A DNA stretch of 32,000 bases from contig NZ_CP011304.1 in assembly GCF_000981785.2 (NCBI RefSeq), forward strand, positions 540,001 to 572,000. Direction: 5' to 3'. The stretch's first letter is position 1, and the number at the start of each line of letters is the position of its first letter. Made by a program: the position numbers and the translations under genes. This document shows, piece by piece, positions 11,195 to 28,868 of this stretch. Source of the DNA: Microcystis aeruginosa NIES-2549. Its GTDB lineage: Bacteria > Cyanobacteriota > Cyanobacteriia > Cyanobacteriales > Microcystaceae. The notes under the pieces are model-generated. The model was not told where the DNA came from. It ran no database searches and was given only the letters and a program-made list of their open reading frames with translations.

Positions 11195-12619
11195 GTGAGG
11201 CAATTTGTGGTTAATAAGACAAAATCAAGGCTTAAAAGCGGAAAATCAAGCAAATTAGCGGCTAAACCAGTGAAAAAGCGGCGATTGTCGCGTAAATGGT
11301 TCCTGACAGTCCTAGGCTTAACCAGCTGCGCCCTAGTTTCCGCAACGGTGGGGGCTATGTTGGCCGTGTCTCTCTCCTCCACACCTTTGCGACAAGCGGC
11401 TCTTAGTCCCGAAGAAGCCGCCGCTTTTAACAATCAGCAGGCCATATCCTATGAAAATCTGCAACTTCCCGCCCTCAACCGTCCCGTTAATATTCTGGTA
11501 GTCGGCGCGAAAGTGTTGACATCCGATGTCAAGGAGGCACAAACCCCAGATCTGGGTTATCATGCCCCGGTTAATTCCTTGGAGGGTTTAACCGATACCA
11601 TGCTGTTACTGCGTTTTGACCCCCAAAGACAGAAGTTAACCATGCTTTCCATCCCCCGGGATACCCGCACCGATATCGAGGGTTACGGGGAGAAAAAAAT
11701 CAATGAAGCTAACGCTATCGGGGGACCTGCTTTAACGGCGGAAACGGTTAGTCATCTTTTAGACGGAGTCGCTATCGATCGCTATATTCGCATTAATGTG
11801 CAGGGTGTGGAAAAATTAATTGATGCTTTGGGGGGGGTGACGGTATATGTTCCCAAAGACATGAAGTACCAAGATTTTAGTCAACACCTCTACATTGACC
11901 TGAAAAAAGGGGAACAACACCTTAACGGCGAGAAATTCCTCCAGTTTGCCCGTTTTCGTTACGATGCTAACGGCGATATCGGTCGTATCCAACGACAACA
12001 GCAATTAATGCGGTCTTTAGTAGAACAAACCCTAAAACCAGCAACTTTACTGAAAATTCCCGATATTATCGAGGTTATCCGCACTCATATCGATACTAAT
12101 CTCAGTTTAGAGGAGTTACTCGCCCTAGCCGGTTTTGCCTCTAAAACTCAGCGCACTGATGTGCAAATGCTACTGCTACCCGGAGACTTTAATGGTGATG
12201 GTCGGCAAGGGATCAGTTATTGGCTACCCAATCAAAGTAAAATTCAAGAGCTAGTGGCTCAACATTTTAACCACGGCTTTTTTATGGCTGACATCGAGGA
12301 AACCACGCAACCGACTCGCATAGCTGTGGAAGATAGCATCGATAATCCAGAAGCGGTGCAAACTCTAATTAGATATCTGCGCTCATTGGGTTATGAAAAT
12401 GTTTTTGTCTCTAAGTCTTCATCGCCAATTCTAGAAACTACCAAAATTATTGCTCAAAAAGGGGATAATTCCCTCGCTGCTTCCCTGCATAATAGCCTTG
12501 GTGTCGGGGAAGTTTTGGTGGAAAGTACAGGGAATCTCGCTTCTGATGTGACGATTAAAATCGGTCAAGATTGGCAAGAAAAATCAGCTAATCTTTCTGA
12601 GCTATCCCCTGGCAACTAA
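11195..12619 (+). CDS. LytR-CpsA-Psr (LCP) family cell-envelope phosphotransferase
   Basis: 474 aa. N-terminal TM segment. LCP core: NILVVGAK...TDTMLLLRFDPQRQKLTMLSIPRDT...INEANAIGGPALTAETVSHLLDGVAIDRYIRINVQGVEKLIDALGGVTVYV. C-terminal LytR_C-like tail. Confidence 0.8.
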   Translation: MRQFVVNKTKSRLKSGKSSKLAAKPVKKRRLSRKWFLTVLGLTSCALVSATVGAMLAVSLSSTPLRQAALSPEEAAAFNNQQAISYENLQLPALNRPVNILVVGAKVLTSDVKEAQTPDLGYHAPVNSLEGLTDTMLLLRFDPQRQKLTMLSIPRDTRTDIEGYGEKKINEANAIGGPALTAETVSHLLDGVAIDRYIRINVQGVEKLIDALGGVTVYVPKDMKYQDFSQHLYIDLKKGEQHLNGEKFLQFARFRYDANGDIGRIQRQQQLMRSLVEQTLKPATLLKIPDIIEVIRTHIDTNLSLEELLALAGFASKTQRTDVQMLLLPGDFNGDGRQGISYWLPNQSKIQELVAQHFNHGFFMADIEETTQPTRIAVEDSIDNPEAVQTLIRYLRSLGYENVFVSKSSSPILETTKIIAQKGDNSLAASLHNSLGVGEVLVESTGNLASDVTIKIGQDWQEKSANLSELSPGN

Positions 12620-12727
12620 GAGAAAAATCAAGTTTATCTGAGTTAGGAGTTACCCATTGACAAAAAACTCATCCATTATCAGTTATCATTGATTAGTGAT
12701 TGGTCACTGTTTACTGTTTACTCTCCC

Positions 12728-14110: not shown

Positions 14111-14605
14111 CTAAATCAAAAATAATTGGGCTACAGTGACGGCATTCTCTCCTCGAAGCATAGCAATAATCACCGCTAGTAACAAGCAGCCCAGCAGGGT
14201 GAGTGCCAAGATAAACAAAGCAAAAATTTCTCCCGAAGATAGGGGACGATCGGTAGGATCGAGATAGGCGCTACGATTAGCTATGGGTTGATCGCCATCG
14301 GGGATGGTTTGGATGACATTCCAGCGCGAGTAACCTATCTGTAAATCATACAGGGAACGGCGATCGGGATTACTCAGGGTGGCATAAGCTTCGTTAAGAC
14401 GCTGGAATTTAACCGTTGCCACTTCGGGGCTGAGTTCGGTAGTATCGGGGTGGTATCGTTTGCTGAGTTCCCGATAGGCGCGTCGCACTTCGATCACCGA
14501 GGCACTCGGATGTAGTCCTAGAATGGCATAATAAGTATTGGCAAAGCGCGAGTTAGCGGCAATGACTCGCGAGGTAGTTTGGGAATTATCGCGCTCGAAG
14601 GTCAC
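14111..14605 (-). CDS. J-domain (DnaJ-like) protein with C-terminal transmembrane anchor
   Basis: 164 aa. YYAILGLHPSASVIEVRRAYRELSKRYHPDTT contains the HPD motif. Hydrophobic C-terminus: IFALFILALTLLGCLLLAVIIAML. GTG start. Confidence 0.8.
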   Translation of the reverse strand: MTFERDNSQTTSRVIAANSRFANTYYAILGLHPSASVIEVRRAYRELSKRYHPDTTELSPEVATVKFQRLNEAYATLSNPDRRSLYDLQIGYSRWNVIQTIPDGDQPIANRSAYLDPTDRPLSSGEIFALFILALTLLGCLLLAVIIAMLRGENAVTVAQLFLI

Positions 14606-14617
14606 AAGATTTTTTAC

Positions 14618-15040
14618 CGAAAAATTGGGTTTAAAGCCTCGCCCTTTTAGGGCGACTTTATCTGATGTATGATATTAAGAATAGCGGGCCGGGTAAGCAA
14701 CCGCTTAAAAAACCCAGTCATCGCAGGATGAACGCACCGTTCGGCAAAAGCTCACGGCCGAAGCCTTGAAAACTAGAGTTATGGGGTTCTATGGGGGAAT
14801 GCTCCTATAGGTAAAAGCTCTAAGCGTCAAGTACCAGAGAAACCAAGTATTTTAGAGGTTTTGAACTGTATCGTAGGGCATAGGAAAACAGGCTTCTGTA
14901 AGGGAGCGAAAGTCTGAGGAGAGAACCACCTCTGGGTGGGATTTCGCCAGGAATCTGGTTCAAGTGGACTCGTTGAGCCAGAAATTCTCAGCAGTGATGC
15001 TAGAAGAATCCACGTCCGTTTACGGCGTGGGGTATGTCAA
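14618..15040 (+). mobile_element. ORF-less IS200/IS605-type mini-element (PATE-like) with candidate TnpB-type omega-RNA scaffold
   Basis: No ORF of 60 aa or more lies inside. Left hairpin at 14639-14655 (tcgccc-TTTTA-gggcga), with TTAC at 14614-17 about 21 nt 5' of its foot. Right hairpin at 15010-15030 (CCACG-T-CCG TTTA CGGCGTGG, with a bulged T), followed by ggtatgTCAA ending at 15040, exactly 10 nt after the foot. The last about 80 nt are homologous to 22300-22386. Confidence 0.45.
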
Positions 15041-15076
15041 ACTAAAAATTGTTTTAATATTTTAACCCTGTTGATC

Positions 15077-15640
15077 ATGAAATCTCGTTATCGGCTGCGT
15101 CTTCAGATCTGTCTTGTCTTTCTTATTGTTGCTCTGACGAGTTTGTCTCCTTGGCTAACCCCTAGTGCCTATGCGGGAATCGATGACGATCGCCTTGATG
15201 GTAATATTTTTGTGGTCTATGCGGGTAATGGTTCCCTCGTACCACCGCGTTTAAATTTAGCGGAAACTTTTCAACGGAAAATTCCAGCTATAATCGTCTA
15301 TTATCTGGATGATAGTAGTGATTGTAAGCGATTTGCGGCGATTGTCTCCCGTTTTCAAGAGTTTTACGGTCGCGCCGCCAGTATTATCCCCGTTACTGTC
15401 GATTCTATCCCCTTAAAGTCTTCCTATCGTCCCGATGAACCGGGTTACTATTATCGCGGTGGGGTTCCCCAAACGGTGGTTTTAGACCAACAAGGTAAAG
15501 TGGTTTATGATGGTTTGGGCAATGTTAAATATGAAGATGTGGATGATGTCTTAAGAAAGGTTTTTGATCTTTTGCCTCGATCGGAATCGGTAGAGTTAAA
15601 AAGACGCTCTTTTAACGAGTTTAACGCTGAATTGCGCTAG
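15077..15640 (+). CDS. Conserved cyanobacterial thioredoxin-like-fold protein with signal/TM segment (resembles proteins annotated as thylakoid membrane photosystem I accumulation factor)
   Basis: Start placed at ATG 15077 (MKSRYRLRLQICLVFLIVALTSLSPWLTPSAYA). The 47-codon extension in the ORF track runs through the structured repeat element. The DGNIFVVYAGNGSLVPP and YYLDDSSDCKRFA blocks are recalled from that family. Confidence 0.55.
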   Translation: MKSRYRLRLQICLVFLIVALTSLSPWLTPSAYAGIDDDRLDGNIFVVYAGNGSLVPPRLNLAETFQRKIPAIIVYYLDDSSDCKRFAAIVSRFQEFYGRAASIIPVTVDSIPLKSSYRPDEPGYYYRGGVPQTVVLDQQGKVVYDGLGNVKYEDVDDVLRKVFDLLPRSESVELKRRSFNEFNAELR

Positions 15641-17473: not shown

Positions 17474-17500
17474 TTTGTCTAGGCAGCCAGTCAGAAATAA

Positions 17501-17532
17501 AGATAAAGTATGACGGGATTTGACCTCATCTC
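17501..17532 (+). repeat. 32-nt dispersed repeat, copy 1 (copy 2 at 23387-23418)
   Basis: agataaagtatgacgggatttgacctcatctc versus agatgaagtgtgacgggatttggcatcatccc: 27/32 identical, same orientation. Confidence 0.7.
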
Positions 17533-17709
17533 TCGACGACTGGCTGCTGTTCCTGCGTTTCGCACTCTCAACTAACTAAATTAAGGGGGCATTTATGGTA
17601 TTTTTAGAGGCAATTTAGCCGACTTTTGTGGTTTCTTTTTCAGTGGATTTAGAGGGTTTTAGTTTATGCTTGATGGTTGAAGCTGCGCTAGAGCCGAAGG
17701 TGACGATAC

Positions 17710-18072
17710 TCAAACTGTTATTTTTTGTACTGTAGATTTTTTGGTTATTTCCTTAGGATGTCTGAACAATTGACCTTCATTTTGGTAGAAAACTTCATAA
17801 TCTGGTGCCAGTTCAAGACATAACTGTTTCCATAAACTAATTCCTTCTTGTTTAAAATCCATTTCAGCTTGCTGATTAGGAAAATCTGATAAAGGTGGAT
17901 AGTCTTGATTTAAAGTCTTATCGTAAGTATCCTGCCATGGGTTTAAACGCTGAATAGTTTCTTTACTTAATGGTAATTCTTCAGGAGTAATGTTATCAAT
18001 TTCATCTACTCCCCAAAGTGGGTAACTTCCATAATCTGCCCAAAGTTTGATTCTGATTGCCATAACTATCAT
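17710..18072 (-). CDS. Hypothetical small protein (family not recognised)
   Basis: 120-aa ORF in an AT-rich region. MAIRIKLWADYGSYPLWGVDE...LPLSKETIQRLNPWQDTY. Coding status is plausible but there is no motif I can name. Met4 (18063) is an alternative start. Confidence 0.45.
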   Translation of the reverse strand: MIVMAIRIKLWADYGSYPLWGVDEIDNITPEELPLSKETIQRLNPWQDTYDKTLNQDYPPLSDFPNQQAEMDFKQEGISLWKQLCLELAPDYEVFYQNEGQLFRHPKEITKKSTVQKITV

Positions 18073-18101
18073 TCCTGAATCAGTTTATTAATTAATCGAG
18101 C

Positions 18102-18227
18102 CGTAGGTTGGGTTGAGCTATCATTATTGCTCAGGTATTACCCATCGGCTCAAAAGGCGAAACCCAACAAAAATTGTGAAAATATTCGAGGAAGTTGTTG
18201 GGTTTCCTTGCGTCAACCCAACCTACG
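18102..18227. repeat. MITE-like pair of inverted GTTGGGTT/AACCCAAC hairpin repeats
   Basis: cgtaggttgggttgagc...gcgaaacccaacaa at 18102-18170. The inverse unit ttgttgggtttccttgcgtcaacccaacctacg is at 18195-18227. This is a dispersed repeat type common in cyanobacterial genomes. Confidence 0.65.
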
Positions 18228-18465
18228 TTCTAATGCTCCGAGTAACAATTCCATAACACCCGATATTACTATCGATAATGGATCAGAACCAGAAATAGTC
18301 TATTCTCTTGAAGGATTTTCCCATCAGGAAATGAAACTATTAACAGACCTATCACTCTCTAGCATTCGGAGTAAAGCCAGTCGAGGGAAGGTGATTACAG
18401 CCAAGGATGGTTTTACCTACCTTTATGACAAAAATCCTGAGATATTAAAGTGGCTCAGAACTTAA
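18127..18465 (+). CDS. Doubtful ORF. The 5' third is the translated MITE repeat; only the C-terminal part (e.g. from ATG 18331) may be a real small protein
   Basis: The N-terminal ...SCWVSLRQPNLRS is encoded by the repeat. The C-terminal MKLLTDLSLSSIRSKASRGKVITAKDGFTYLYDKNPEILKWLRT is loosely HTH-like. A hairpin containing HIP1 (18482-18505) follows. Confidence 0.25.
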   Translation: MLRYYPSAQKAKPNKNCENIRGSCWVSLRQPNLRSNAPSNNSITPDITIDNGSEPEIVYSLEGFSHQEMKLLTDLSLSSIRSKASRGKVITAKDGFTYLYDKNPEILKWLRT

Positions 18466-18578
18466 CTTTAAATGACTCTAACAAAGGGGCGATCGCGCCT
18501 CTTTGAACTAAATTTGGTTTTTCTTGTGTTAAGTAGCTGGTTATAATTAGGGTTTGGTTAATTTTTTAGTATTTTTGC

Positions 18579-21500
18579 TTAGGGTAAGTCCAGATATTCT
18601 TGTTCTGTTAGGGCAAATTCTGGATCAATGATTTTTACTTCATTATAGGTGAGTTGATAGAGTTTGTAAACTAAGTGATCAATCTGCTTTTCTAATTCGC
18701 TTGTGTCAGCAGTAGGATCAGATTTTTTAGCGGCGAGAATTTTGTCAACTAAATTGATAAAAGCTGATTGGTTTTTAGTTTTCTTAATTGGTAAAGACGA
18801 CAATTCATAAATTCTAATCTCAGGAAATGTTATATCTTGCCTGTTATATTTTTTCCTAAAATAGAATGCTATTAACTTTGAGTTAATAATTCCTAAAAGA
18901 TATTTTGTAAGTGACTGATCATGTGGTTTTACTATTTGCAATAGCTGGCTAGTTACAAAATCACCATTAGTGTAACAAGCAATAAGCTTTTCTCCAACAA
19001 TTCGCCTTACCAATATTCTTTCTCCTTCAAAGAGAGAAATATCTCTTGGAGCAGCAAGATTTGAGCCGTATTTGAGCCATCTATTTTTCCAAGAAATCAA
19101 ATATGTGTTGATATCTTTTCCTTCTAAATATGGTCTATATGTGTTATCTACCTTAAAGTCAGCTTCAAATATTTTATTTTGGGCATCTTCTTTTTTCTGT
19201 TTTGGATTTCCCTTACCTGTCTCATAGATTTTTATACCAAATTTTACGATGGCAATCTCTGCTAATATTTGACTGTCACTTTCTATCTTATTTCTTAAAA
19301 GAATATCGTTTTTATTGGCATCAATATTAATAATTTTTAAATCATCTTGCGCCCAGTTATCCTGACTCATGATACACTTAGTAACAAGAGGATAATTGTC
19401 TTCTACACTGGGAACTAAAATTTCAGTTTGATTTGTAGTAGCCGTTTTTTTCTGAATTAATGTGATTACTGGTAAGACTGTAGCATCTTCAAAAACTTTG
19501 GTTTTAGAATAATCAACTATTTTTAATATTTTTAATTTGAGAAGTATTCCCCTAATTAATAAATTTTTCTGGTTGTTTAACCATGTATTTGGCGTGATAT
19601 AGCCAATTAAGTCTTTACTTAATTTTGTAGCCAATTCCCAAAACAAGATATAAGCATCAAATTGATACTCTGCACCTTTATAGGTATTCAAATAATAGTT
19701 AAATTCAGATTTTCCTAATCCCCATTCTCTACCTCCTATATAAGGAGGATTCCCAATCACCACATCAAACCCGACAAAATCCCCGTCATCATTCAACACT
19801 TCAGGAAACTCAAACCGCCATTCTAAAGCATTATCATACAGCCTACCGCTTTCAATATCTGCAATTTCAGCAGTTAGCTTATCAATCTCATTATTTAACT
19901 TAGTTACTTTTTTCTCCCGCGCTTTTTGCTCCGTCTTAGTCTCCTCAAACAATAAACCCTGATTTTCCAGATTATAAAGTTCCCCTTGTAATTGACGTAA
20001 CTTCACCTTCTTAGGATCACTAATTAATAAATTAGCACTAAAACCAGCCTTAATCTGAGCAATCAGCGTTTCCATCTCCCGCTTTTGTTCCTTATTTTCC
20101 GCATTGCGATAAGTCTGTACCGCATTGCGATATTCCTCAATACTAAACTTCTGCTTCTGTAAAACCTGTTTAACATCCACATCCAAAGCAAAGCGACTAA
20201 TCAAAGAATTACCACACTTGATATTAATATCAATATTTGGCAAAGTTTCTAAATTGCCATCCTCTCGATAATAAGCATTCTTTAAAAGCTCAATCCATAA
20301 CCGCAACTGACAAATCGTCACGGAATTAGGGTTAATATCCACCCCAAATAAACACCCTTCGATAATCGTCTGTTTCTCATGAAATAAGGCTTGCTGTACC
20401 CGTTGCTTTTCTTTATTATTCGGATGATAAGCAAATAAACTCCCCTCATCATCATAAACCAATAACTTATCGTTTCGCACCTCTACCCGATAATCTTTTA
20501 GCGACTTACCCGAACTATCTAATAAAACCCGTAACTCACTCTTAATCGCGATTATCTCATTCAAAGCTGAAACTAAAAAATGTCCTGAACCCACGGCCGG
20601 ATCGCAAATCTTCAGGCTATTAATAATAGTATTCGCCTCTCTTTTGTCCTCAATTCGTTCATATAAATTATCCAAACTTTGACAATTCCAGCCTTTTACT
20701 TCATTAAACTTCTGCACGATCGCTCTTCGTATCGTTTCCCGACACATATACATGGTAATAAAACTCGGCGTATAAAAAGAACCGTCCTTATAACCATTAA
20801 TCTTTTCAAAAATTAACCCCAACACCGAAGCATTAATTAACTTTTCGCTATCTTCTTGAGGATTTTCTAACTCATCTCGATCGAATTTATAAGCATCCAA
20901 AAACTCAAACAAATAAGCCAACGCATTTAACTCGCCTACTCGCTTATTACCCTGATTATCTTTTAGCACCGTACCTGCAAAAATGGGTAAAGTTCGCTCC
21001 CGCAAATTGCCAATAAAAATCGTTTGGTCTTCCGTCTCCGTTGGTAGAAATAGCGAACTATTTAAATAAGGTACATGAGCAAAAATCGTTTTAACCTTAG
21101 CCTCGCGCTTATTTTTCTCCTTGGCTAACACATCAAAAAACAAACTATCGAGATCACTATAACTGGGAACTTTCGCCAAATTGAGAAAAGCAAAATCTCG
21201 ATCGCCTTGATGATATTTAATTAATTGCGCTTCCAATAGTTTGAGAAATAAAACCCGATTAATCCAATTAATTGATAACCGCAACGCCACATTAAAAAGC
21301 CGTTCTTCATCTGTAGTTCCAAACTCTTCAGTTAATTTTGAAGTCTTATCTAGACTATCCAACCGACTAATCGCATTTTCAATTAGGGAACCATCACAGC
21401 GATCGCCTTCTTTCATTCGTCCGATTAACTTCTTCCCTTTTTCCTTAATTTCCGTCAAACCAATAATATACAAAAGCTCATTATAAAAAGGCTTATTTAA

Positions 21501-22214
21501 AGTATTACTGTCATTAACAAAAGGTAACTTAAGTAAATGTTCTGGTGAAAGAATCTTGTAAATATCAAGCAAATCTAAATTTTCCAGATCTCGCAGATCA
21601 AAATGAGTAAACTTAATTTGCTCAATAACTTTAGTGATCGCTGGTTCGGCAATTTGTTGATAGAAAAAATCCGTTTTTGTACTACTCAGTCTCCCTGCTT
21701 CAAAATCGCAAAACTGGTTAACTAGAGCCTTATTAGCAAAAAACAACTCCTCAAAAATCTTCGCATCGAAAATAAACCACTCATAAATATTTGTCACGAT
21801 CAAGTGTTTAATCTCAAGATTTTTATCCGTCACCCTTTCGCGGAGAAAATATAAAACTAACTGCTGAAAAGCCTTGGTATTGAGATTATCCAGTCTTGGC
21901 ATTTCTGCATTTATTGTCCGAGTAGGCTTCTTAGTCTCAAAAATGACCCCCACTGGACTTTTAACATCCTGGTTATTATGAATCACCAGATCAATGCGCT
22001 CTTTTGTATTGATAAAATAGCGATCGGTATAATAGGTATTTTTTAAAAAATCTATCAGCAAATTTTTATTAAACTCTTCCGACTTTTTGCTGTCACATTG
22101 CTCCAACAAGCGCGCCAAATTAGCTTGAAAAACCTGAATTGTTTCAGCCTCAGGCTTGATTTTTAAGTACACCCGATTTAAGGCTTGCTTGAGTTCTCGC
22201 TTATTGACGATCAT
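18579..22214 (-). CDS. Type IIG restriction-modification enzyme: N-terminal PD-(D/E)XK nuclease, gamma-class N6-adenine DNA methyltransferase, and C-terminal target-recognition domain (Eco57I/MmeI-like)
   Basis: 1211 aa. Nuclease-like RIDLVIH...VGVIFETKKP (D...ExK). SAM motif I: ICDPAVGSGHFLVSAL. Catalytic motif IV: VVIGNPPYIGG. Long C-terminal TRD-like region. The gene is visibly more AT-rich than its neighbours. Confidence 0.8.
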   Translation of the reverse strand: MIVNKRELKQALNRVYLKIKPEAETIQVFQANLARLLEQCDSKKSEEFNKNLLIDFLKNTYYTDRYFINTKERIDLVIHNNQDVKSPVGVIFETKKPTRTINAEMPRLDNLNTKAFQQLVLYFLRERVTDKNLEIKHLIVTNIYEWFIFDAKIFEELFFANKALVNQFCDFEAGRLSSTKTDFFYQQIAEPAITKVIEQIKFTHFDLRDLENLDLLDIYKILSPEHLLKLPFVNDSNTLNKPFYNELLYIIGLTEIKEKGKKLIGRMKEGDRCDGSLIENAISRLDSLDKTSKLTEEFGTTDEERLFNVALRLSINWINRVLFLKLLEAQLIKYHQGDRDFAFLNLAKVPSYSDLDSLFFDVLAKEKNKREAKVKTIFAHVPYLNSSLFLPTETEDQTIFIGNLRERTLPIFAGTVLKDNQGNKRVGELNALAYLFEFLDAYKFDRDELENPQEDSEKLINASVLGLIFEKINGYKDGSFYTPSFITMYMCRETIRRAIVQKFNEVKGWNCQSLDNLYERIEDKREANTIINSLKICDPAVGSGHFLVSALNEIIAIKSELRVLLDSSGKSLKDYRVEVRNDKLLVYDDEGSLFAYHPNNKEKQRVQQALFHEKQTIIEGCLFGVDINPNSVTICQLRLWIELLKNAYYREDGNLETLPNIDINIKCGNSLISRFALDVDVKQVLQKQKFSIEEYRNAVQTYRNAENKEQKREMETLIAQIKAGFSANLLISDPKKVKLRQLQGELYNLENQGLLFEETKTEQKAREKKVTKLNNEIDKLTAEIADIESGRLYDNALEWRFEFPEVLNDDGDFVGFDVVIGNPPYIGGREWGLGKSEFNYYLNTYKGAEYQFDAYILFWELATKLSKDLIGYITPNTWLNNQKNLLIRGILLKLKILKIVDYSKTKVFEDATVLPVITLIQKKTATTNQTEILVPSVEDNYPLVTKCIMSQDNWAQDDLKIINIDANKNDILLRNKIESDSQILAEIAIVKFGIKIYETGKGNPKQKKEDAQNKIFEADFKVDNTYRPYLEGKDINTYLISWKNRWLKYGSNLAAPRDISLFEGERILVRRIVGEKLIACYTNGDFVTSQLLQIVKPHDQSLTKYLLGIINSKLIAFYFRKKYNRQDITFPEIRIYELSSLPIKKTKNQSAFINLVDKILAAKKSDPTADTSELEKQIDHLVYKLYQLTYNEVKIIDPEFALTEQEYLDLP

Positions 22215-22386
22215 AAAAGTTTACCTCTAGGGAAACTACCGATTTTATTATAGCATTGCCAAATGATCGGTTAAAATAGAAGGATAAAAGTTGCAATCGA
22301 GGTAATCCGTCGAAGTAAGGAATTTCTAACAGCAATGGGGAAAAAATCCCCCGTCACAGCCTAGCTTGACGGGGGGAGTATGTCAC
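22215..22386 (+). mobile_element. Solo IS200/IS605-type right end / TnpB-type omega-RNA-like fragment
   Basis: Hairpin cccccgtca-(10 nt)-tgacggggg at 22348-22375 (plus a t47-g76 wobble), then agtatgTCAC ending at 22386, 10 nt after the foot. The preceding aaggaatttctaacagcaatgg...aaaatccc aligns with ccagaaattctcagcagtgatg...agaatcca at 14970-15012. No tnpB ORF is present. Confidence 0.4.
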
Positions 22387-23126
22387 TGTTGCAATGCTTT
22401 TAAGAAGCGTCCCATAGTGGCAAATAAACCCGACTTTTTGGCTTTATTAGCAGGATTAGAACTATCATTAGGATTATTACTAGAAGCTTTCAGAATCAGA
22501 TTTTCTAAAGCTTCGCCCATGGGTTTAGTGGATTGTTCGGAAATTAACTCGTAACCGTCTTCTTTTTCTAGCCAAACTTGCCACATGGAAGGATAGGAAC
22601 GATAAACGATCGCTGATTCCAAGGGACGAAAATAATAACAACTTTCTAGGGTACTTAAAAATCTTTCTCGCAATTGTCGGGCTGCGTAACCGATACCCAC
22701 TACCGATACATCTTCCAATTGAGGAATTAGAAGAACTACGGGGCGATCTTCGGCAAGGTAACAGAGTTTTTCTACGGAATTAATCTCCACCGAGGAGGGA
22801 CAAACAACTAAAAAAACTTCATCTTCGGGCTTAATTTTGTTTTCGACAGGAATAAAACGACTACCTAAATCTCCCAGTTGAAAAACTGTTTCTCCCCAAT
22901 CCCGTCGAGCTAACATGGCGGCCCCGGTATCGGGAAAAATTACCCTTAAACCAGAACCATAACTGTCAAAAATAGAGGCAAAATCAAGGGCTAAAGCTTG
23001 CGCTTGTAGAGCAATTTCTGGGATAACTAATTCCACTTGTAGGCGTCTAGCTCCCGATTCTAGAGCCAGTTGGGTGGCGGCTTTCGCTTGCAGGATGGTT
23101 TCTTCTAGGGAATTGGGTAGGGTCAT
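22383..23126 (-). CDS. DUF1995-family protein (conserved in cyanobacteria and chloroplasts)
   Basis: 247 aa. LEETILQAKAATQLALESGARRLQVELVIPE...VFLVVCPS pattern is typical of DUF1995. Its stop codon (TGA, 22385-22383) lies inside the GTATGTCA motif of the adjacent right-end-like module. Confidence 0.65.
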   Translation of the reverse strand: MTLPNSLEETILQAKAATQLALESGARRLQVELVIPEIALQAQALALDFASIFDSYGSGLRVIFPDTGAAMLARRDWGETVFQLGDLGSRFIPVENKIKPEDEVFLVVCPSSVEINSVEKLCYLAEDRPVVLLIPQLEDVSVVGIGYAARQLRERFLSTLESCYYFRPLESAIVYRSYPSMWQVWLEKEDGYELISEQSTKPMGEALENLILKASSNNPNDSSNPANKAKKSGLFATMGRFLKALQQ

Positions 23127-23128
23127 TT

Positions 23129-23170
23129 CAGTTATCAGTTATCAGTTATCAGTTATCAGTTATCAGTGAC
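23129..23170. repeat. Heptamer tandem repeat (GTTATCA)x5 in the 5' leader of the DUF1995 gene
   Basis: cagttatcagttatcagttatcagttatcagttatcagtgac begins 3 nt upstream of the ATG at 23126. Confidence 0.9.
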
Positions 23171-23223
23171 TACCTCTGGTCGTCGGTGACTTAAAATCAG
23201 AAAGATTTTAATTTTTATAAAAG

Positions 23224-23379
23224 GTAGGGTTGATTCATAGTAGGGTTGATTCATAGTAGGGTTGATTCATAGTAGGGTTGATTCATAGTAGGGTTGATTC
23301 ATAGTAGGGTTGATTCATAGTAGGGTTGATTCATAGTAGGGTTGATTCATAGTAGGGTTGATTCATGAATCAACCCTAC
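23224..23379. repeat. 16-bp tandem repeat (GTAGGGTTGATTCATA x8, plus a 9th variant) ending in a 28-nt perfect palindrome
   Basis: Eight identical head-to-tail units lie at 23224-23351. The ninth unit runs into gtagggttgattcatgaatcaaccctac (23352-23379), which is perfectly self-complementary. Confidence 0.95.
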
Positions 23380-23386
23380 CCTTAAT

Positions 23387-23778: not shown

Positions 23779-24570
23779 TTATTCTCCTGATTCGGGAATA
23801 TTATAGCTGATCGAGGCTTGCGGTGCGGCGGCGGGTTCGGGGACAACATCCCCTAGGCGACGGGTAATAGTTTGACCGTATTGTTCTAGGACAATATAGG
23901 GATTGTCGGGATCGGTGTTGATCGCTTTAACTAAAATTAAACCATTAGAGAGGGTAGAACCGGGGATAACTCGACGTTCCGTGGCTTCTCCGGTGGCTTT
24001 CACGATCGCCATGGCACTGGTGGGCAACCGGATGATGCCCAATACTTGCACTTCTTCGGCTTCCGTCGGTTGCGGTGGTGGGGGAGGTGCTTTAACTATC
24101 GGTAGTCTAAGAGTGGGCGGTGCTTTCACTATCGGTAGTCTAAGAGTGGGCGGTGCTTTCACTATCGGTGGTCTGGGAGTGGGACGATTGCCCCTTGCTG
24201 CGGGTGCGGCTGCGGTGGCCGCTGGAGTCCCAGCCGGGGGTTTTCCCGCCACTGTAATTGTAATATTTGGTTGTAGGGAAAAGGGGGCAAAGGGATCCTT
24301 ATTCCTGGAACCGCGATTAATTTCTGCCCGTTTTTGGTCGGGATCGGTAGCGGGAATAAATCCCGATGCGCTTGGGGGGGTCGATTCGGTGGCTGGTTGC
24401 ACAGGACCGCTAAAGGCAGGAGGTTGGGCAGCTGGGGGACTAGGAGAGGGGGTGGGGGTGGGGGTTTCTTGGGTGGGTGGTGGGGATTGATTAGCTTGGT
24501 TAGAAGCTGGACATCCCACCAACAATAAAGCGACACTCCCCACCGATAGGACTAGCGGCAATTTTTTCAT
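23779..24570 (-). CDS. Proline-rich lipoprotein with a triplicated 11-aa repeat and a C-terminal beta-rich domain
   Basis: Lipobox: MKKLPLVLSVGSVALLLVGC. Long P/T/A-rich linker. PPIVKAPPTLRL x3 is encoded by the 33-bp DNA repeats at 24086-24184. The C-terminal VQVLGIIRLPTSAMAIVKATGE...LILVKAIN...IVLEQYGQ loosely resembles PilP/GspC-type domains. Confidence 0.7.
   Translation of the reverse strand: MKKLPLVLSVGSVALLLVGCPASNQANQSPPPTQETPTPTPSPSPPAAQPPAFSGPVQPATESTPPSASGFIPATDPDQKRAEINRGSRNKDPFAPFSLQPNITITVAGKPPAGTPAATAAAPAARGNRPTPRPPIVKAPPTLRLPIVKAPPTLRLPIVKAPPPPPQPTEAEEVQVLGIIRLPTSAMAIVKATGEATERRVIPGSTLSNGLILVKAINTDPDNPYIVLEQYGQTITRRLGDVVPEPAAAPQASISYNIPESGE
24086..24184. repeat. 33-bp tandem repeat x3 inside the lipoprotein CDS
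   Basis: ggtgctttaactatcggtagtctaagagtgggc (24086-24118), ggtgctttcactatcggtagtctaagagtgggc (24119-24151), ggtgctttcactatcggtggtctgggagtggga (24152-24184). Confidence 0.9.
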
Positions 24571-24689
24571 GGGGAGACAAAGACAAAATGGCCTTGAAGG
24601 ACAACCTTGTATATTAACATAACATTTGTTTCCCAGAAATCTAGGCTGATTATAAGGGGAAAGTCAGGAACTTTGCCCCTAGTCCAATT

Positions 24690-26435
24690 TTAATATTGAC
24701 TACCAGATTTGCGATGACCGATGGCGGTGACACCGTTACTATCCAAAACTTGACCCCGCTCGACCGTGGCATAGACTAACCAGCGATCGCCGCAGAGTTG
24801 TCGCTCTTGGACCGTACACTCCAGGTAGGCGAGACTTTCGCTTAAAATCAGACCGCCATTTTCCCCGACTTGGGTTTCTAATCCTGTAAAGACATCGCCG
24901 CCAGATTTGATGCGATTGGAAAAATGGCGGCGTAAATTGCGCCCTTCCTTGAGAATATTCAAGATAAAGACGGTTCCCGAGTTAATTAGGCGATCGGCGG
25001 CTTGTTCGTCAGCAACGGCGATAATTAGCCCCGGGGGGTTAAAACTGGCTTGGGATACCCAAGAGGTCAAGAAACCAGCATGATCCTCGCCCTGACGAGT
25101 GGTGAGAACACAGAGGGAACCGACGATCCGACCAACGGCCTGGGCAGTGCGATCGATTTGTGTTTCGGTCATTCCCTGTTGGGGAACCCGCAATTTTTTG
25201 GTTTTTTTCAAGGTCCTGGCGAAGGTTTCTCCAGCTAAATAACCTGCTTGTAAACTGCTTTCTGTGGGGTTAAAACGCACGCGCAAAGACTCAAAACCGA
25301 GGCGATAATTAGCATCTTTGAGTTTAGTTTCAATTAAATCTACCGCTTCTCCACTCCAACCGTAGGAACCAAAAACCCCAGCTAATTTAGTTTTTGCTGC
25401 CGTGGAAAGAACGATTCCTAAAGCGGTTTGAATCTGGGTAGGAGCGTGACCAGCTAAGGTGGGAGAACCGATAATAAATCCGTCACAATTTTCGATCGCT
25501 TGACTAATTTCGGCGGGGGTGGCAAACTCACAATTTATTGATTCTACGGCTAGATCATTTTCTAATAATCCTCTTTCGATCGAGCGGGCCATGGTGGCAG
25601 TATTTCCGTAGGCAGAAGCATATAATAAAGCCACTTGTAGGGGTCGAGTTTTTTGTTCTTGACACCAATAGCGATAATCGTGGGCAAGACGACTAAGACT
25701 ATAGCGAATTATCGGACCGTGGGCGGGTGCATAATATTGGGCAGGAAATTCTTTAATTTTGTCGAGGGCTGTTTCTACTGGTTTTGATTGTACGGCATGA
25801 AGACAATCAAAATAATAACGACGATCTGCGTCTAATTGTTTCCAATTTTTATCCAAAATATCGTCACTGCACAGATGCACACTAAAGAATTTATCGCTGT
25901 ATAAAATTTGGGTTTTTTGGTCAAAAGTGCAGATACCATAAGGCCAGCGCGGGGTAGGAACATTAATAAAACTTAGTTGATGACCTTGCCCTAAATCAAG
26001 GATTTCATCGGTTCGTATGCCCAAAATTTGGGCATCGGGAAAGGCATTTTTTAGGGTATTTACAGCCGATTTAGAACAGAGGATGGTGATTTGATGGGTT
26101 TGGTCTAATAATGCCTTTAAAGTGACGATGCGGTTAGGATTAACGTGACTGAGAATCAGATAATCGAGACGATGTAAGGGGACATATTGACGAATTTCTT
26201 CTAAATAAATTTCGGTGAAGGATTCTCCAGGGGGATCGATTAAGGCGGTTTTATCGCCACAGATAAGATAGGAATTAGCGGTGGTTCCCCGTTGACGAGC
26301 ATATTCTATTTCAAATTTTAATCTGTCCCAAGTACGCGAGCGAAAAACCCAAGTTTGATCGGCAATTTCGGCGGTTTGAACATCGCGGGGGCGATTATTA
26401 ATAGCAGGATTGGGAATTAAAGTATTAGTGGTCAT
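24690..26435 (-). CDS. flv2: Flavodiiron protein Flv2-type (metallo-beta-lactamase-like, flavodoxin-like and flavin-reductase domains)
   Basis: 581 aa with three-domain class C FDP architecture. The diiron ligand motif is degenerate (LILSHVNPNR in place of HxExDH), as described for Flv1/Flv2-type proteins. It is the last gene of an flv4/small membrane protein/flv2 arrangement. Confidence 0.8.
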   Translation of the reverse strand: MTTNTLIPNPAINNRPRDVQTAEIADQTWVFRSRTWDRLKFEIEYARQRGTTANSYLICGDKTALIDPPGESFTEIYLEEIRQYVPLHRLDYLILSHVNPNRIVTLKALLDQTHQITILCSKSAVNTLKNAFPDAQILGIRTDEILDLGQGHQLSFINVPTPRWPYGICTFDQKTQILYSDKFFSVHLCSDDILDKNWKQLDADRRYYFDCLHAVQSKPVETALDKIKEFPAQYYAPAHGPIIRYSLSRLAHDYRYWCQEQKTRPLQVALLYASAYGNTATMARSIERGLLENDLAVESINCEFATPAEISQAIENCDGFIIGSPTLAGHAPTQIQTALGIVLSTAAKTKLAGVFGSYGWSGEAVDLIETKLKDANYRLGFESLRVRFNPTESSLQAGYLAGETFARTLKKTKKLRVPQQGMTETQIDRTAQAVGRIVGSLCVLTTRQGEDHAGFLTSWVSQASFNPPGLIIAVADEQAADRLINSGTVFILNILKEGRNLRRHFSNRIKSGGDVFTGLETQVGENGGLILSESLAYLECTVQERQLCGDRWLVYATVERGQVLDSNGVTAIGHRKSGSQY

Positions 26436-26461
26436 AATTGTTAAGTTGGTTATTAGCTGTA

Positions 26462-26503
26462 CTGATAACTGATAACTGATAACTGATAACTGATAACTGA
26501 TTA
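26462..26503. repeat. Heptamer tandem repeat (CTGATAA)x5 plus a partial unit in the spacer between the psiE-like gene and flv2
   Basis: Five perfect CTGATAA units at 26462-26496. The sixth, degenerate unit ctgatta (26497-26503) contains the stop codon of the 26501-27001 gene. Confidence 0.9.
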
Positions 26504-27001
26504 AGTTTTGCTATTTATTTCAGTTAATTCTTTAACTAAATGTTGACGATAACGCTCGGAAACTTTTTGCTCGGGATCGATACCTTCAAAGGTGGGAGGA
26601 AGCCAAACTCTTAATACCATTAATGTGCCGAGAACTATTAGAAAAGCACAGGCGGCTAATACTTGTGTCCAATTAGTTTCTAGGACTCCTCTGACAATTA
26701 ATTCTCGCAAAACTGAGACGATAGAAACTTCCACGGCAACACCGATAGAAACTCGTTTTTCTTGCAAATAAATAATTAACAATCGGAACAATTCTACTAG
26801 AATTAAGAGGAATAAAATATCGGCGGTAACAATCCGAAATTGAATCGGTGGCAGCAGAGACATAAACATTTCTCTGACTTCTAACACCATGAAGCTAAAT
26901 AAACCAATACAGAGAGAAATGACAATTAAATCTTGAATCATTTCTAAGACTTGCACTACCCGCACCATCATTGGGGAAGGATTTTTAATTGGTTCGTACA
27001 T
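26501..27001 (-). CDS. Small integral membrane protein, PsiE-like (Sll0218 homologue position in the flv4-flv2 operon)
   Basis: 166 aa with about four hydrophobic helices. It lies between the two flavodiiron genes, as in the Synechocystis flv4-sll0218-flv2 operon. Confidence 0.7.
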   Translation of the reverse strand: MYEPIKNPSPMMVRVVQVLEMIQDLIVISLCIGLFSFMVLEVREMFMSLLPPIQFRIVTADILFLLILVELFRLLIIYLQEKRVSIGVAVEVSIVSVLRELIVRGVLETNWTQVLAACAFLIVLGTLMVLRVWLPPTFEGIDPEQKVSERYRQHLVKELTEINSKT

Positions 27002-27035
27002 TTTATTTCTCCTAAGATTGATAGAATTGGATGTT

Positions 27036-27143
27036 TCAGTTATCAGTGAGCAGTAAACAGTAATCAGTGAAAATAAAGCGGTAACTTCCTACTTAACACT
27101 ATCCACTGAAAACTTAAATCTGAAAACTGATAACTGTTAACTG
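27036..27143. repeat. Two opposed blocks of degenerate heptamers (CAGTnnn x5 and CTGnnAA x6) forming a long imperfect inverted repeat
   Basis: cagttat cagtgag cagtaaa cagtaat cagtgaa at 27036-27070. ctgaaaa cttaaat ctgaaaa ctgataa ctgttaa ctgttaa at 27102-27143. This is the flv4-to-psiE-like spacer. Confidence 0.75.
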
Positions 27144-28868
27144 TTAATAATGGTTGCCAACTTTGCGATGATGGACAGCAGTTAAGACATCTAAACGAGC
27201 AACTCGTCCAGTATTAACGGTACAATAAACTACCCAATGATCGCCGCAATCTAAACGACTGGTGACTTCACATTCTATGTAAGCTAAGGCATCGCCTAAA
27301 ATTGGTGATCCATTATTGGCAGTATAGGTTTTAATGCCTTCAAAACGATTGGCACCGGGAGAGAAACGCTTGAGGAAATGTTTCATTAATTTCTGGTAAT
27401 TATCCTCAGCCAAAACATTTAAAACAAAGGTATCGCTAGGCTGTAAAAATGATACCATTGCCCGATCTTTGGCCACTGCAATCGCCACACCTAAAGGATT
27501 TAAACTTGCTTGCGTCACCCAAGAGGCAATCATAGCACTGGATAAATCGGCTTTTTGGGAAGTAATTAGGTATAATCCAGTGCTAATACGTCCTAGAGCC
27601 TTTTCTAAGTCGTTGTTAATCGATTTAATTTGTTTAATCGTTTTTTCTCGGCTTAACCATTGGCCGAGGTCGGTTCCTGCTTCATCGGCAATAAAATCGA
27701 GGGATTGATTGGTATTATCTTTAACTAAAAGAGGAGGAAAAGCTTCGATCGCCCCGATTTCCTGTAATTTATTTCTTAAGGGGAAAATTGGTTCATCTTC
27801 CCCACCTCCTGACTCAAATAATCCTACCGCTTGTTTGCCATTGACTGAAGCAAGAATCGTGCTTAAAATCATCTGGTTAGTCGGGGAAGATTGGGGCGGC
27901 ATTCCGATGATAACTCCCTTAGACTGATTGATTAATTCTCTGACTTCGTGGGGATCAGCATTATTCATATCGACTAATTCTGTCACCACATCAGTTTTAG
28001 TCAAACCCTGACTAATCATGGTAGCTAAATGTTCGCTTTGTCCGTAATCTTGGGTAAAGAATACAGTCACTAAAGTATCAGCAGAAGTTTGTTCTTGACT
28101 CCAAGTTTGATAACGTCCCACCCAATCAGCAATATGGTGTTTTAATAGGGGTCCGTGACCGGTGGCAATGAGATTAATCTCGAATTTCTCGATTCTTTTA
28201 ATTGCCCCTAAAACTGAACGAGCATTCGGTCGCATCAGACAGTCATAATAGGTTTGAAAATCGGCTTCTAGCAGCTCTTTTTCTAGATCATAGGTTTGAT
28301 CATCACAAAAGTGCATTCCGAAGGCATCACAGGTAAAAAGGGTGGCAGTTTTAGCATCAAAAGTGAAGATAGTATCAGGCCAATGAAGATTAGGGGCCGC
28401 AACAAATTCTAAAACATGACCATTACCTAAGTCTAAAGTATCACCACTTTTAACGATTAACTGTTTAAAGGGTCTGTGTACCATGTTTTCCAGGAATTGC
28501 ATGGCAACTTTTGCACCCACCACGGTAACTTCTGGGACTAATTCTAAAACTTCTTTGACTAAACCACTGTGGTCGGGTTCGGTGTGACTGATAATTAAAT
28601 AATCAAGATGATTGATGTTGATTAGTTTAGTTAATTCCTCCAGATAAAGGCGATCGAATTTTCGGTGAGATGTATCAATGAGAGCGGTTTTTTCCCCTTG
28701 AATAACAAAAGAGTTATAAGTCGTACCGTTTTCTAAACCAAACTCGATATCAAAACGATCGCGGTCCCAATCCAAACAGCGCAAGGTAAAAGTATTTTCG
28801 GCGATTTCTTGGATTTGTGTGGTTAAACGGCTGGTTTTAGCGGGTTTTGGAGTGATTAAAGCCACCAT
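27144..28868 (-). CDS. flv4: Flavodiiron protein Flv4-type
   Basis: 574 aa with the same three-domain architecture. Canonical diiron motif HTEPDH (LIISHTEPDHSG). It is the first gene of the operon. Confidence 0.8.
   Translation of the reverse strand: MVALITPKPAKTSRLTTQIQEIAENTFTLRCLDWDRDRFDIEFGLENGTTYNSFVIQGEKTALIDTSHRKFDRLYLEELTKLININHLDYLIISHTEPDHSGLVKEVLELVPEVTVVGAKVAMQFLENMVHRPFKQLIVKSGDTLDLGNGHVLEFVAAPNLHWPDTIFTFDAKTATLFTCDAFGMHFCDDQTYDLEKELLEADFQTYYDCLMRPNARSVLGAIKRIEKFEINLIATGHGPLLKHHIADWVGRYQTWSQEQTSADTLVTVFFTQDYGQSEHLATMISQGLTKTDVVTELVDMNNADPHEVRELINQSKGVIIGMPPQSSPTNQMILSTILASVNGKQAVGLFESGGGEDEPIFPLRNKLQEIGAIEAFPPLLVKDNTNQSLDFIADEAGTDLGQWLSREKTIKQIKSINNDLEKALGRISTGLYLITSQKADLSSAMIASWVTQASLNPLGVAIAVAKDRAMVSFLQPSDTFVLNVLAEDNYQKLMKHFLKRFSPGANRFEGIKTYTANNGSPILGDALAYIECEVTSRLDCGDHWVVYCTVNTGRVARLDVLTAVHHRKVGNHY

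Follow-up and report, generated by a model that had tools for sequence, protein, structure and literature searches.

An ORF-less IS200/IS605-type mini-element with a predicted omegaRNA-like RNA gene in Microcystis, and its relatives in cyanobacteria and phages

INTRODUCTION

IS608 inserts 3' of the tetranucleotide TTAC (PMC3201880), which stands 19 nucleotides (nt) 5' of its left palindrome, and its other boundary, TCAA, lies 10 nt 3' of its right palindrome (PMC3201880, PMC5934647). Two guide sequences, AAAG on the left and GAAT on the right, are each located just 5' of a hairpin foot (PMC5934647). In elements that carry tnpB, the DNA just past the right end supplies the guide, and palindrome-associated transposable elements (PATEs) often encode omegaRNAs that need TnpB in trans (Meers et al. 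2023). The RNA family RAGATH-18 is the core of the right-end element RNA (reRNA) of one TnpB family; it lies wholly outside the open reading frame (ORF) and is linked to IS607 TnpB (Ren et al. 2024). Here we analyze a 423-bp mini-element of the IS200/IS605 type that contains no ORF and that fills most of a divergent promoter region in Microcystis aeruginosa NIES-2549. It was found in a 32,000-nt stretch of the chromosome (NZ_CP011304.1, positions 540,001 to 572,000), which we call the window and within which all positions are numbered.

Small mobile sequences have been described from this genus before. Microcystis PCC 7806 has 14 to 16 copies of a 444-bp IS200/IS605 tnpA that moved in culture (PMC11448079), and MaeMITEf, a 429-bp non-coding repeat with 24 copies in M. 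aeruginosa NIES-843, was classed as a MITE, a miniature transposable element with inverted repeats (Kaneko et al. 2007).

RESULTS

A 423-bp insertion between two divergent genes

The element occupies a 471-bp gap between the GTG start, at 14605, of a DnaJ-domain gene on the minus strand (14111-14605) and the ATG start, at 15077, of a thioredoxin-like (Trx-like) gene (15077-15640). Stops occur throughout all six frames, and neither the six-frame translation nor the list of ORFs contains a credible ORF in the gap, the only ones listed being a 47-amino-acid (aa) ORF starting with TTG and a GTG extension upstream of the Trx-like frame. Six-frame translation of the 423-bp element yields no remnant of tnpB. 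Coordinates and hairpins agree with an earlier note, written from the letters of the window, which had described the gap as highly structured and without a credible ORF.

A look-up of the exact Trx-like protein in public assemblies returned 20 contigs. (Numbers preceded by L denote the contigs from public assemblies, metagenomes, plasmids, and phages that were compared with the window.) Seven contigs, each with an identical 187-aa Trx-like protein, have an empty site (L001, L002, and L006 to L010). Their two start codons are 48 bp apart, and the DNA reads cacaagattttTTAC/actaaaaattgtcttaat, the slash marking the insertion point, i.e., ...TTAC/actaaaaatt..., which is letter for letter the empty site that the earlier note had predicted. 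The window differs from it by exactly 423 bp (14618-15040) between TTAC and actaaaaatt, with zero duplicated bases. The earlier note had allowed that all orthologous loci might carry the same sequence, which the seven empty-site contigs contradict. The DnaJ/Trx site is filled in four further contigs; L004 and L005 have a 396-bp version of the element at the same position, and L003 has an element with the right flank of this site and a foreign left flank. Positions 14618-15040 are therefore an insertion, almost certainly a mobile and non-autonomous element of the IS200/IS605 type.

The left junction of the DnaJ/Trx site varies. In L004 (7800-7815), L005, and L061 it reads TTAC-ACTAAAAATTG-GGTTT, as opposed to the usual TTAC-CGAAAAATTG-GGTTT, such that right-flank sequence takes the place of the initial bases of the left end as far as a microhomology of 8 nt (AAAAATTG). 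Such a junction looks like what recombination between an empty and a filled allele would leave as a scar.

Transposon ends of the IS608 type

At the left end, AAAG forms the last four nucleotides of the linker (14633-14636), the position of the left guide (GL) in IS608. The strict hairpin (14639-14655) begins 21 nt from TTAC; counted from the foot CC at 14637 the distance is exactly 19 nt, but this CC is unpaired and the count of 19 depends on where the foot is placed. At the right end, GAAT (15006-15009) lies directly 5' of the palindrome, at the position of the right guide (GR), and the palindrome itself (15010-15030) pairs over 8 bp, with the T at 15015 extrahelical. Next come the 10 nt ggtatgTCAA (15031-15040), whose TCAA (15037-15040) occupies the position of the right cleavage site (CR). 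The left palindrome is similar to the right one (left, CC-TCG-CCC..GGG-CGA; right, CC-ACGTCCG..CGG-CGT-GG). Among the relatives described below, the right-end hairpin covaries and GAAT and GTCAA are constant, GAAT being invariant in all members seen. The earlier note had described an IS608-type geometry, with a left hairpin about 21 nt from TTAC and a right hairpin of 8 bp with an extrahelical T and TCAA ending 10 nt further on; each of these features is present, and the arrangement, guides AAAG and GAAT included, agrees with the published one (PMC3201880, PMC5934647).

The element thus shares with IS608 a seamless insertion at TTAC without duplication, palindromes at both ends on one strand, and the AAAG and GAAT guides. 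It has no ORF, and hence no Y1 HUH transposase TnpA of its own, and is therefore classed as a non-autonomous derivative rather than as an insertion sequence proper. By analogy, TnpA would catalyze its excision and integration on single-stranded DNA, for which the active IS200/IS605 tnpA copies of Microcystis (PMC11448079) give indirect support. A MITE in the strict sense has terminal inverted repeats and a target-site duplication and derives from a DDE transposon. The element falls outside this definition, since its ends (CGAAAAATTGGG... and ...GGTATGTCAA) do not form inverted repeats and its target is not duplicated.

Copies at many TTAC sites

The exact right-end pattern occurs at 14 loci in GTDB genomes, all of them in Microcystis. 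Most are full-length (396 to 425 bp, 88 to 96% identity) and two are right-end fragments; none of the 14 is linked to tnpB, all being ORF-less or fragments. In metagenomes, the core 20-mer GGAGAGAACCACCTCTGGGT, which is common to plasmid and phage relatives, identified 88 loci, full-length copies at 88 to 96% identity among them, and it has 0 matches in viral contigs. All members of the family were fetched by such exact patterns, of either the right end or the core. Long ORFs upstream of the metagenome loci were considered as linked tnpB genes and rejected, since they are flanking genes or unlinked tnpB fragments. A repeat search detected no second copy of the element inside the 32-kb window.

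There are about 38 combinations of left and right flanks. The left tetranucleotide is TTAC in 34 of these, TGAC in 2, and TTAT in 2, and in all combinations the element ends in TCAA and a duplication was never seen. Independent insertion sites number more than 30; they almost all lie directly 3' of TTAC, are diverse, and have no neighboring gene in common. Empty and filled alleles, together with insertions at many TTAC sites, demonstrate that the element is mobile, as the earlier note had proposed.

Truncated or internally deleted copies occur in L011, L012, L045, L046, L074, and L077. In L003, L087, and L116, the left flank of one site is joined to the right flank of another, indicating that element copies recombine and are substrates for chromosomal rearrangement between Microcystis strains. 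Full-length copies differ by a 27-nt insert (Table 1), which is absent from those of 396 to 397 bp and present in those of 423 to 425 bp, even at one chromosomal site.

Relatives of this 27-nt hairpin (GTTCGGC...GCCGAAGCC) are found in L019 (817-846), at the left end of L048, and, as several tandem copies, in L066, so that the hairpin seems to be a very small repeat in its own right, prone to insertion. Another small hairpin insert is of a different kind, a C/G-rich palindrome (CCCCCC..CCCGAYRTCGGG..GGGGGG) at varied positions of the omegaRNA region in L100 (1240-1290), L030, L041, L111, and L011 (2530-2570). In one case it lies within the 3' end of a tnpB ORF, and in several within mini-elements.

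An ORF-less family in cyanobacteria and phages

Comparison with plasmids and phages (blastn) showed that the left end and the core are conserved modules. The first 42 nt of the element have 88 to 95% identity to sequences in Nostoc, Trichormus, Chroococcidiopsis, and Microcystis plasmids and in phages Mic1 and PA-SR01, the matching left ends including one of a Nostoc tnpB element. The core (element nt 298-368) matches ORF-less relatives in a Sphaerospermopsis plasmid and in Nodularia phages. The family falls into three groups: type A, in Microcystis and represented by the window copy; the longer type B, also from Microcystis-bloom contigs; and a Nostocales type. About 340 aligned positions are common to all three. 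They share, in order, a -10 box, helix S1 around a GGTAA..AA loop, AAAAACC, helix S2, CCTTGACAA, GGGGTTCT, helix S3, and GTAAAA, followed by hairpin H4 with its GGGCA loop, the long-stem core, GAAT, the right-end hairpin, and GTCAA. The ends around this common part are mixed: type A combines a Nostoc-type left end with a Microcystis-type right end, and type B has a left end of the Microcystis tnpB type.

A complete ORF-less member lies between the ribonucleotide reductase gene and gp175 in Nodularia phage vB_NspS-kac65v151 (L026, 2600-3100) and four related phages. It is annotated as a 70-aa hypothetical protein on the opposite strand, and the Sphaerospermopsis plasmid member is annotated as a 127-aa "transposase," also on the opposite strand. 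Neither product has a Pfam match, and both are probably mis-annotations.

One insertion site, gatatttgTTAC/TAAGCGTCAAAGTTCC, holds different subtypes in different contigs. L077 has an internally deleted type A copy of 302 bp there (reverse strand, about 12280-12620), and seven contigs (L048, L071, L078, L093, L094, L096, and L101) have a type B copy of 577 bp. With about 20,000 TTAC per genome strand, two subtypes at one site are unlikely to be due to chance, and could reflect a hotspot, targeted choice, or replacement.

A predicted promoter and a conserved RNA structure

A TAnnnT hexamer precedes S1 by 6 to 9 nt in each of the 44 distinct upstream sequences, and it does so in three promoter contexts: TGnTAnnnT in the Nostocales type, TTGACC-17-TACTAT in type B, and TATGAT in the window. 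Helices S1 to S3 were counted with motif-anchored scripts because MAFFT set S1 one column out of register between subtypes. Over all distinct copies, standard pairs make up 97% of S1, 92% of S3, and 82% of H4, versus 82%, 68%, and 55%, respectively, with shuffled partners; for the foot of the right-end hairpin, the values are 82.5% and 64%. In no case did any of 1,000 shuffles score as high. The H4 of the window copy contains one G.G mismatch.

In an alignment of the 3' part from 27 sequences, 96.7% of cells are paired, compared with 87.4% after column shuffling and 25 to 45% when partners are slid. Compensatory changes occur in 11 of 27 pairs, and the covariation score is 0.395 versus 0.208. 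Three adjacent pairs are mostly G-U, which become C-A mismatches if read on the opposite strand, indicating that the 3' structure is specific to the plus strand. Similarly, the plus strand folds better than its own shuffles (z = -2.4) and the minus strand does not (z = -1.2). A long-range GGUUC/GAACC pairing returned by RNAalifold for the full alignment was rejected, as it has wobble support only and competes with the covarying outer helix. Very probably, then, the element contains a gene on the plus strand for a predicted, transcribed omegaRNA-like RNA of about 360 nt.

The extra hairpin that follows the core (Table 1) is also present in the tnpB right end of L117 and L118 (TTTCTAACAGCGATGTGGAAAGAAT) and in a second, decayed end within the window, site B, described below. 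A variant of the core, GTGGAC-TCG or GTCCACATCG, recurs both in type A (for example, L024, L012, L046, and L047) and in type B (for example, L035, L102, and L109), where the window reads GTGGACTCG at the corresponding position (14965-14973). GTCCAC is the reverse complement of GTGGAC, and the variant breaks two CCAC/GUGG pairs of the helix; its recurrence in separate lineages suggests a small inversion, a template switch, or a selected off-state.

No terminator-like site was found 3' of the right end. The ATG of the Trx-like gene would thus now lie 36 nt downstream of a predicted, unterminated RNA gene, and any promoter signals on the right-hand side of the insertion would be separated by 423 bp from the DnaJ start. 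Where the site is empty, the two divergent genes must draw on signals in or beside the 48 bp. The filled allele is present in many contigs, so the insertion is tolerated.

TABLE 1 Features of the mini-element, its flanks, and site B in the window
Feature	Position	Strand	Remarks
TTAC target tetranucleotide	14614-14617	+	Host DNA outside the element; present in empty sites (L001 and others)
ORF-less IS200/IS605-type mini-element, type A, 423 bp	14618-15040	+	Exactly the extra DNA relative to empty sites
Left end	14618-14657	+	19-nt linker (14618-14636), then imperfect palindrome (foot CC at 14637, paired core 14639-14655)
Putative -10 box TATGAT	14668-14673	+	Conserved hexamer; predicted transcription start near 14680
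5' RNA domain	14680-14817	+	S1, AAAAAACCC, S2, CCTTGAAAA, GGGGTTCT, S3, GTAAAAG; from Microcystis to Nostocales and Nodularia phage
Helix S1, loop GGGTAAGCAA	14683-14687 with 14701-14705	+	Motif-anchored pair counts
Helix S2	14718-14722 with 14727-14731	+	Same place, five different stem sequences
27-nt nested hairpin insert (GTTCGGCAAAAGCTCACGGCCGAAGCC)	14739-14765	+	Only in some copies
Helix S3	14789-14797 with 14802-14810	+	Motif-anchored pair counts
Hairpin H4, GGGCA loop	14871-14885	+	All 5 bp covary; homology to tnpB-linked omegaRNAs starts here
OmegaRNA-like 3' core, RAGATH-18-like	14913-14984	+	Outer helix, GGAG...CGUUGA motif, long inner stem
Extra imperfect hairpin	14985-15005	+	In type A and Microcystis tnpB element; absent from type B and Nostocales copies
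Right end	15006-15040	+	GAAT, imperfect palindrome, 10 nt closing in TCAA
Would-be guide flank (actaaaaattgttttaat)	15041-15058	+	By analogy with tnpB elements; also 5' untranslated/promoter region of the Trx-like gene
Site B, decayed right end (about 95 nt) of a Microcystis tnpB element	22290-22386	+	Closes in TCAC instead of TCAA

Homology of the 3' half to tnpB-linked guide RNAs

Rfam at gathering thresholds has no match in the whole window, and the IS605-orfB models that the earlier note had suggested as a check returned nothing in either the gathering or the permissive scans. In a permissive scan of 14400-15300, a match to MOSES4 was attributed to chance. The full RAGATH-18 model (RF03064) scores 21.8 bits (E = 0.028 on 106 nt; 14913-14984) in the window and 25.3 bits in L026, the homologue from a phage, whereas its gathering score is 44.9. 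The match is a resemblance and not a membership.

A hidden Markov model (HMM) of the family, searched with nhmmer against tnpB 3' ends, matches those of L118/L119 (E of about 1e-11), L117 (8e-10), L100 (1e-6), and L027 (5e-5). The alignments include only model positions from about 151-190 to 339 and run through to TCAA; identity between the element and the L117/L118 3' end is 81% over aligned columns. The equivalent of H4 is located inside the 3' ends of the tnpB ORFs, as CTGT-TGGGCAA-ACAG in L117/L118 and CCGTA-GGTCA-TACGG in L027. A GGGCA-type hairpin, the core, and the extra hairpin are common features as well. The 3' half of the element (about 170 nt, about 14871-15040) has its homologue in the omegaRNA/reRNA scaffold found at the 3' ends of cyanobacterial tnpB genes, which is where the earlier note had placed such a scaffold. 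The element therefore has the homology expected of an omegaRNA, and it has no adjacent or overlapping tnpB; tblastn detected no TnpB coding sequence in the 32-kb window.

The 5' half (about 140 to 170 nt) has no significant counterpart in tnpB elements. Its best HMM match there, a short GGTAAGAAAC..AAAAACC stretch inside the ORF with an E value of 0.4, was treated as not significant, and the 5' domain has no match in Rfam.

The tnpB elements nearest to the family come from two genera. That of Nostoc sp. UHCC 0870 (L027) lies at TTAC, encodes a 403-aa TnpB (Pfam OrfB_IS605 and Cas12f1-like_TNB), and has a type A-like left end, with 86% identity to that of type A, and the right end GAAT-ctccgcccttatagggcggag-agtgTCAA. 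The Microcystis elements, L117 from M. aeruginosa NIES-843 and L118/L119, lie at TTAC or TTAT and encode a TnpB of 428 to 429 aa with intact RuvC motifs (IDLGL, YEALK, and DRDHNAAINIL). Their left end resembles that of type B, and their right end (...GGAATTTCTAACAGCGATGTGGAAAGAAT-hairpin-AGTATGTCAA) has the architecture of the window right end. A tnpB of the L117 type is present in NIES-843 and other Microcystis, and strain T1-4 has both this tnpB and mini-elements.

Site B and other features of the window

The earlier note had pointed to a related end at 22300-22386. Its similarity to the mini-element is real but weak: blastn at E <= 1 shows no link between the two, and MAFFT shows a common AAT-CC..C hairpin and GTATGTCA. 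The nature of site B becomes clear only against tnpB right ends. It aligns with those of L100, L117, and L118, having a near-identical hairpin, CCCCCGTCACAGC(C/G)TAGCTTGACGG(G/T)GGG, followed by AGTATGTCA, and its final stretch is AGTATGTCAC. No tnpB ORF lies beside it, and a permissive Rfam scan gave chance matches only. Site B is thus a relic tnpB right end 7 kb from the mini-element, and it adjoins the start of a gene for a 1211-aa Eco57I/MmeI-like restriction-modification fusion protein (18579-22214).

In this part of the window (17474-23126), synteny with empty-site strains stops after the OprB porin gene, beyond which the window has two small ORFs and the restriction-modification gene, and L001 and L002 have a peptidase M16 gene instead. 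About nine tandem copies of the 16-nt unit GTAGGGTTGATTCATA, then one inverted copy, occupy 23192-23383. Heptamer arrays, (CAGTTAT)n and its complement (ACTGATA)n, occur at 23126-23174, 26447-26513, 27034-27157, and 12656-12704. They form 40-nt perfect inverted arms about 3.3 kb apart that bracket the genes at 23779-26435, and they adjoin two genes that are paralogs of each other and encode about 580 aa each (24690-26435 and 27144-28868).

DISCUSSION

We put the probability at about 60% that the whole chain of events is as follows: a PATE-type element with IS608-type ends, equipped with a promoter and an omegaRNA-like RNA, is both mobilized and homed in trans. The element inserted 3' of TTAC in the 48-bp divergent region between the DnaJ and Trx-like genes of a Microcystis strain. 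A Y1 TnpA encoded elsewhere would move its top strand, by way of both palindromes and of pairing between AAAG and TTAC and between GAAT and TCAA. Transcripts started at the internal promoter would cross the right end at TCAA, fusing the scaffold to a guide, actaaaaattgtttt..., that matches the right flank of that same copy. A separately encoded TnpB would then load this RNA, and the Microcystis 428-aa type (L117/L118) is a candidate because the right end of its element has the same architecture. After excision, TnpB would cut the restored joint of TTAC and actaaaaatt... (TTAC-actaaaaattgt), and recombination with a filled sister copy would reinstate the element; the flank at 15041-15058 is the same as the empty-site sequence beside TTAC but for one single-nucleotide polymorphism. 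Such a scheme of excision, recutting, and reinstatement is established for tnpB elements and has been suggested for omegaRNA-carrying PATEs (Meers et al. 2023). The mini-element would accordingly be a parasite of TnpA and TnpB both. That its RNA works with TnpB in trans is the step toward which we lean by analogy with these systems, and by a somewhat narrow preference.

Several observations weigh against this scheme. Upstream of about 100 family members, no tnpB ORF was found; the nearest tnpB-linked omegaRNA is a homologue of the element RNA rather than the same RNA, so that cross-recognition by TnpB is conjectural. Retrieval by exact patterns makes the invariance of those stretches partly a product of ascertainment, and tnpB-linked relatives with a single mismatch would be missed. 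Nothing in the TnpB model calls for the 5' domain, and both the promoter and read-through across the right end are predictions. Because G-T pairing occurs in single-stranded DNA as well, the argument for RNA comes from the promoter box and not from the helices. Finally, the window copy, with its mismatch in H4 and its 27-nt insert, is possibly impaired.

Some of these same points would suit an RNA that functions independently of TnpB homing, through its 5' domain, or an insert that serves as a portable promoter or regulatory sequence, in either case still mobilized by TnpA; here, such a promoter could drive the Trx-like gene and disturb that of DnaJ. The 5' domain is conserved with covariation and is missing from all of the tnpB elements examined, the search for a copy of the RNA linked to tnpB found none, and there is no terminator in the 36 nt between the element and the Trx-like gene. 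Moreover, left and right ends of different types surround one RNA module, suggesting that the RNA itself is the selected cargo. But the 3' domain keeps its full omegaRNA-like architecture up to TCAA, as a guide-fused scaffold needs, the insertion sites are diverse with no shared neighboring gene, and no protein partner or target can be proposed. An effect on neighboring promoters would be a by-product and leaves 340 nt of conserved structure unexplained. We therefore consider a TnpB-independent function unlikely. We give still less weight to the element being inert debris, an internally deleted tnpB element that TnpA can move and whose RNA part is neither expressed nor used, an option that the earlier note had left open. 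The lack of a nuclease in cis, the mismatch and foreign insert of the window copy, and the existence of truncated and internally deleted copies are what decay would produce. However, a -10 box at a fixed distance and at least six compensated helices are maintained in Microcystis, Nostocales plasmids, and Nodularia phage, which indicates purifying selection on the RNA, and a 5' half without significant similarity to tnpB elements is not what simple deletion would leave.

Two further explanations concern the identity of the element. The sole Rfam resemblance is to RAGATH-18, whose reRNAs were reported only with IS607 TnpB (Ren et al. 2024), and it could be taken to point to an IS607-type element moved by a serine recombinase. 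This is very improbable, in that the match is below the gathering score, and subterminal hairpins, TTAC and TCAA, AAAG and GAAT, and the 19- and 10-nt spacings form the IS608-type signature of Y1 TnpA; the related tnpB elements of L027, L117, and L118 also have IS608-type ends and no neighboring serine recombinase gene. That the structured sequence filling this divergent promoter region might instead be a resident housekeeping or cis-regulatory RNA, such as a leader of the Trx-like gene, has next to no probability: empty sites beside an identical Trx-like protein refute it, and more than 30 unrelated loci carry the element.

Beyond the scheme of a PATE homed in trans, the members of the family could be more than sporadic products of deletion: they could form an ancient lineage of "RNA-only transposons," able to sustain itself and dispersed among cyanobacteria and the phages that infect them, whose RNA gained a promoter and a 5' domain. 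We regard this as possible but doubtful. If it were so, the 5' domain could let the RNA outcompete TnpB's own guide, making the element a hyperparasite of TnpA and TnpB, or give the RNA an activity of its own, and the presence of two subtypes at one TTAC site (L077 and the L048 group) might reflect a guide-directed or otherwise targeted choice. Cas12 descends from TnpB/omegaRNA systems, which serve in nature to retain transposons at their sites. A widespread RNA-only lineage, without the nuclease gene but with promoter, scaffold, and an added domain, would mean that the RNA component of such systems can live as an independent selfish element. It would also provide naturally occurring scaffolds that are encoded apart from the nuclease, along with a conserved RNA domain that can be tested for an influence on TnpB loading. 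The element is in addition an active source of differences among Microcystis strains, through insertion into a promoter region, placement of a predicted unterminated RNA gene near the Trx-like gene, and rearrangements.

Comparison with known systems

The mini-element resembles IS608 of Helicobacter pylori in its insertion 3' of TTAC without duplication, in its 19- and 10-nt spacings, and in its AAAG and GAAT guides. It differs in having neither tnpA nor tnpB and in its length (423 bp versus about 1.8 kb); its hairpin sequences are unrelated, the left hairpin has an unpaired CC foot, and the right spacing is 8 nt in type B and the Nostocales relatives. MaeMITEf, when compared by description only, fits type A with the 27-nt insert in size and copy number, and the mini-element may be MaeMITEf. 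Classification as a MITE, however, implies inverted repeats, whereas the mini-element has neither terminal inverted repeats nor target duplications.

Like TnpB omegaRNAs and the RAGATH-18 reRNA, the predicted RNA lies at the right end on the top strand and stops at the transposon boundary. With RAGATH-18 in particular it shares the outer helix of the core, the GGAG...CGUUGA motif, the long inner stem, and a scaffold wholly outside an ORF, but it scores about half the threshold, has IS605-type ends and no adjacent tnpB, and has a much longer 5' extension. The Microcystis (L117 and L118/L119) and Nostoc (L027) tnpB elements share with the family a TTAC or TTAT target, right ends of the form GAAT-hairpin-(A/G)GT(AT)GTCAA, the GGGCA/GGTCA hairpin, and a homologous omegaRNA region; they differ in carrying tnpB, in an omegaRNA that overlaps the ORF, and in lacking the 5' domain.

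In TldR systems, the guide RNA accompanies an adjacent tldR gene with an inactivated RuvC site, and its fixed guide is complementary to a host promoter. Here there is no tnpB-like gene in the window, and the would-be guide is the flank, which differs at each site. The idea of a regulatory RNA of a nuclease-dead TnpB, also raised in the earlier note, finds no support, given that the related Microcystis TnpB keeps its RuvC D/E/D motifs.

Close to the family are the PATEs, including the omegaRNA-bearing PATE-like elements of Geobacillus stearothermophilus (Meers et al. 2023), which likewise are ORF-less, have IS200/IS605 ends, and presumably use both TnpA and TnpB in trans. The mini-element has the properties of a PATE, namely, the lack of a protein gene, hairpin ends of the IS200/IS605 type, multiple copies, and presence/absence polymorphism. 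No occurrence of the conserved RNA strings of the family was found in the literature, nor were descriptions found of a dedicated conserved promoter, a 5' domain without a tnpB counterpart, ORF-less spread across cyanobacterial orders and phage, or an RNA module shared by elements with mixed left and right ends. Another point of difference is that no parent element carrying tnpB together with the same RNA was found for the cyanobacterial family. OmegaRNA-bearing PATEs being already known, the family is a variant of that kind, set apart by its own conserved promoter and an extra 5' RNA domain of about 140 to 170 nt, and by its persistence across orders and phage with varied combinations of end types.

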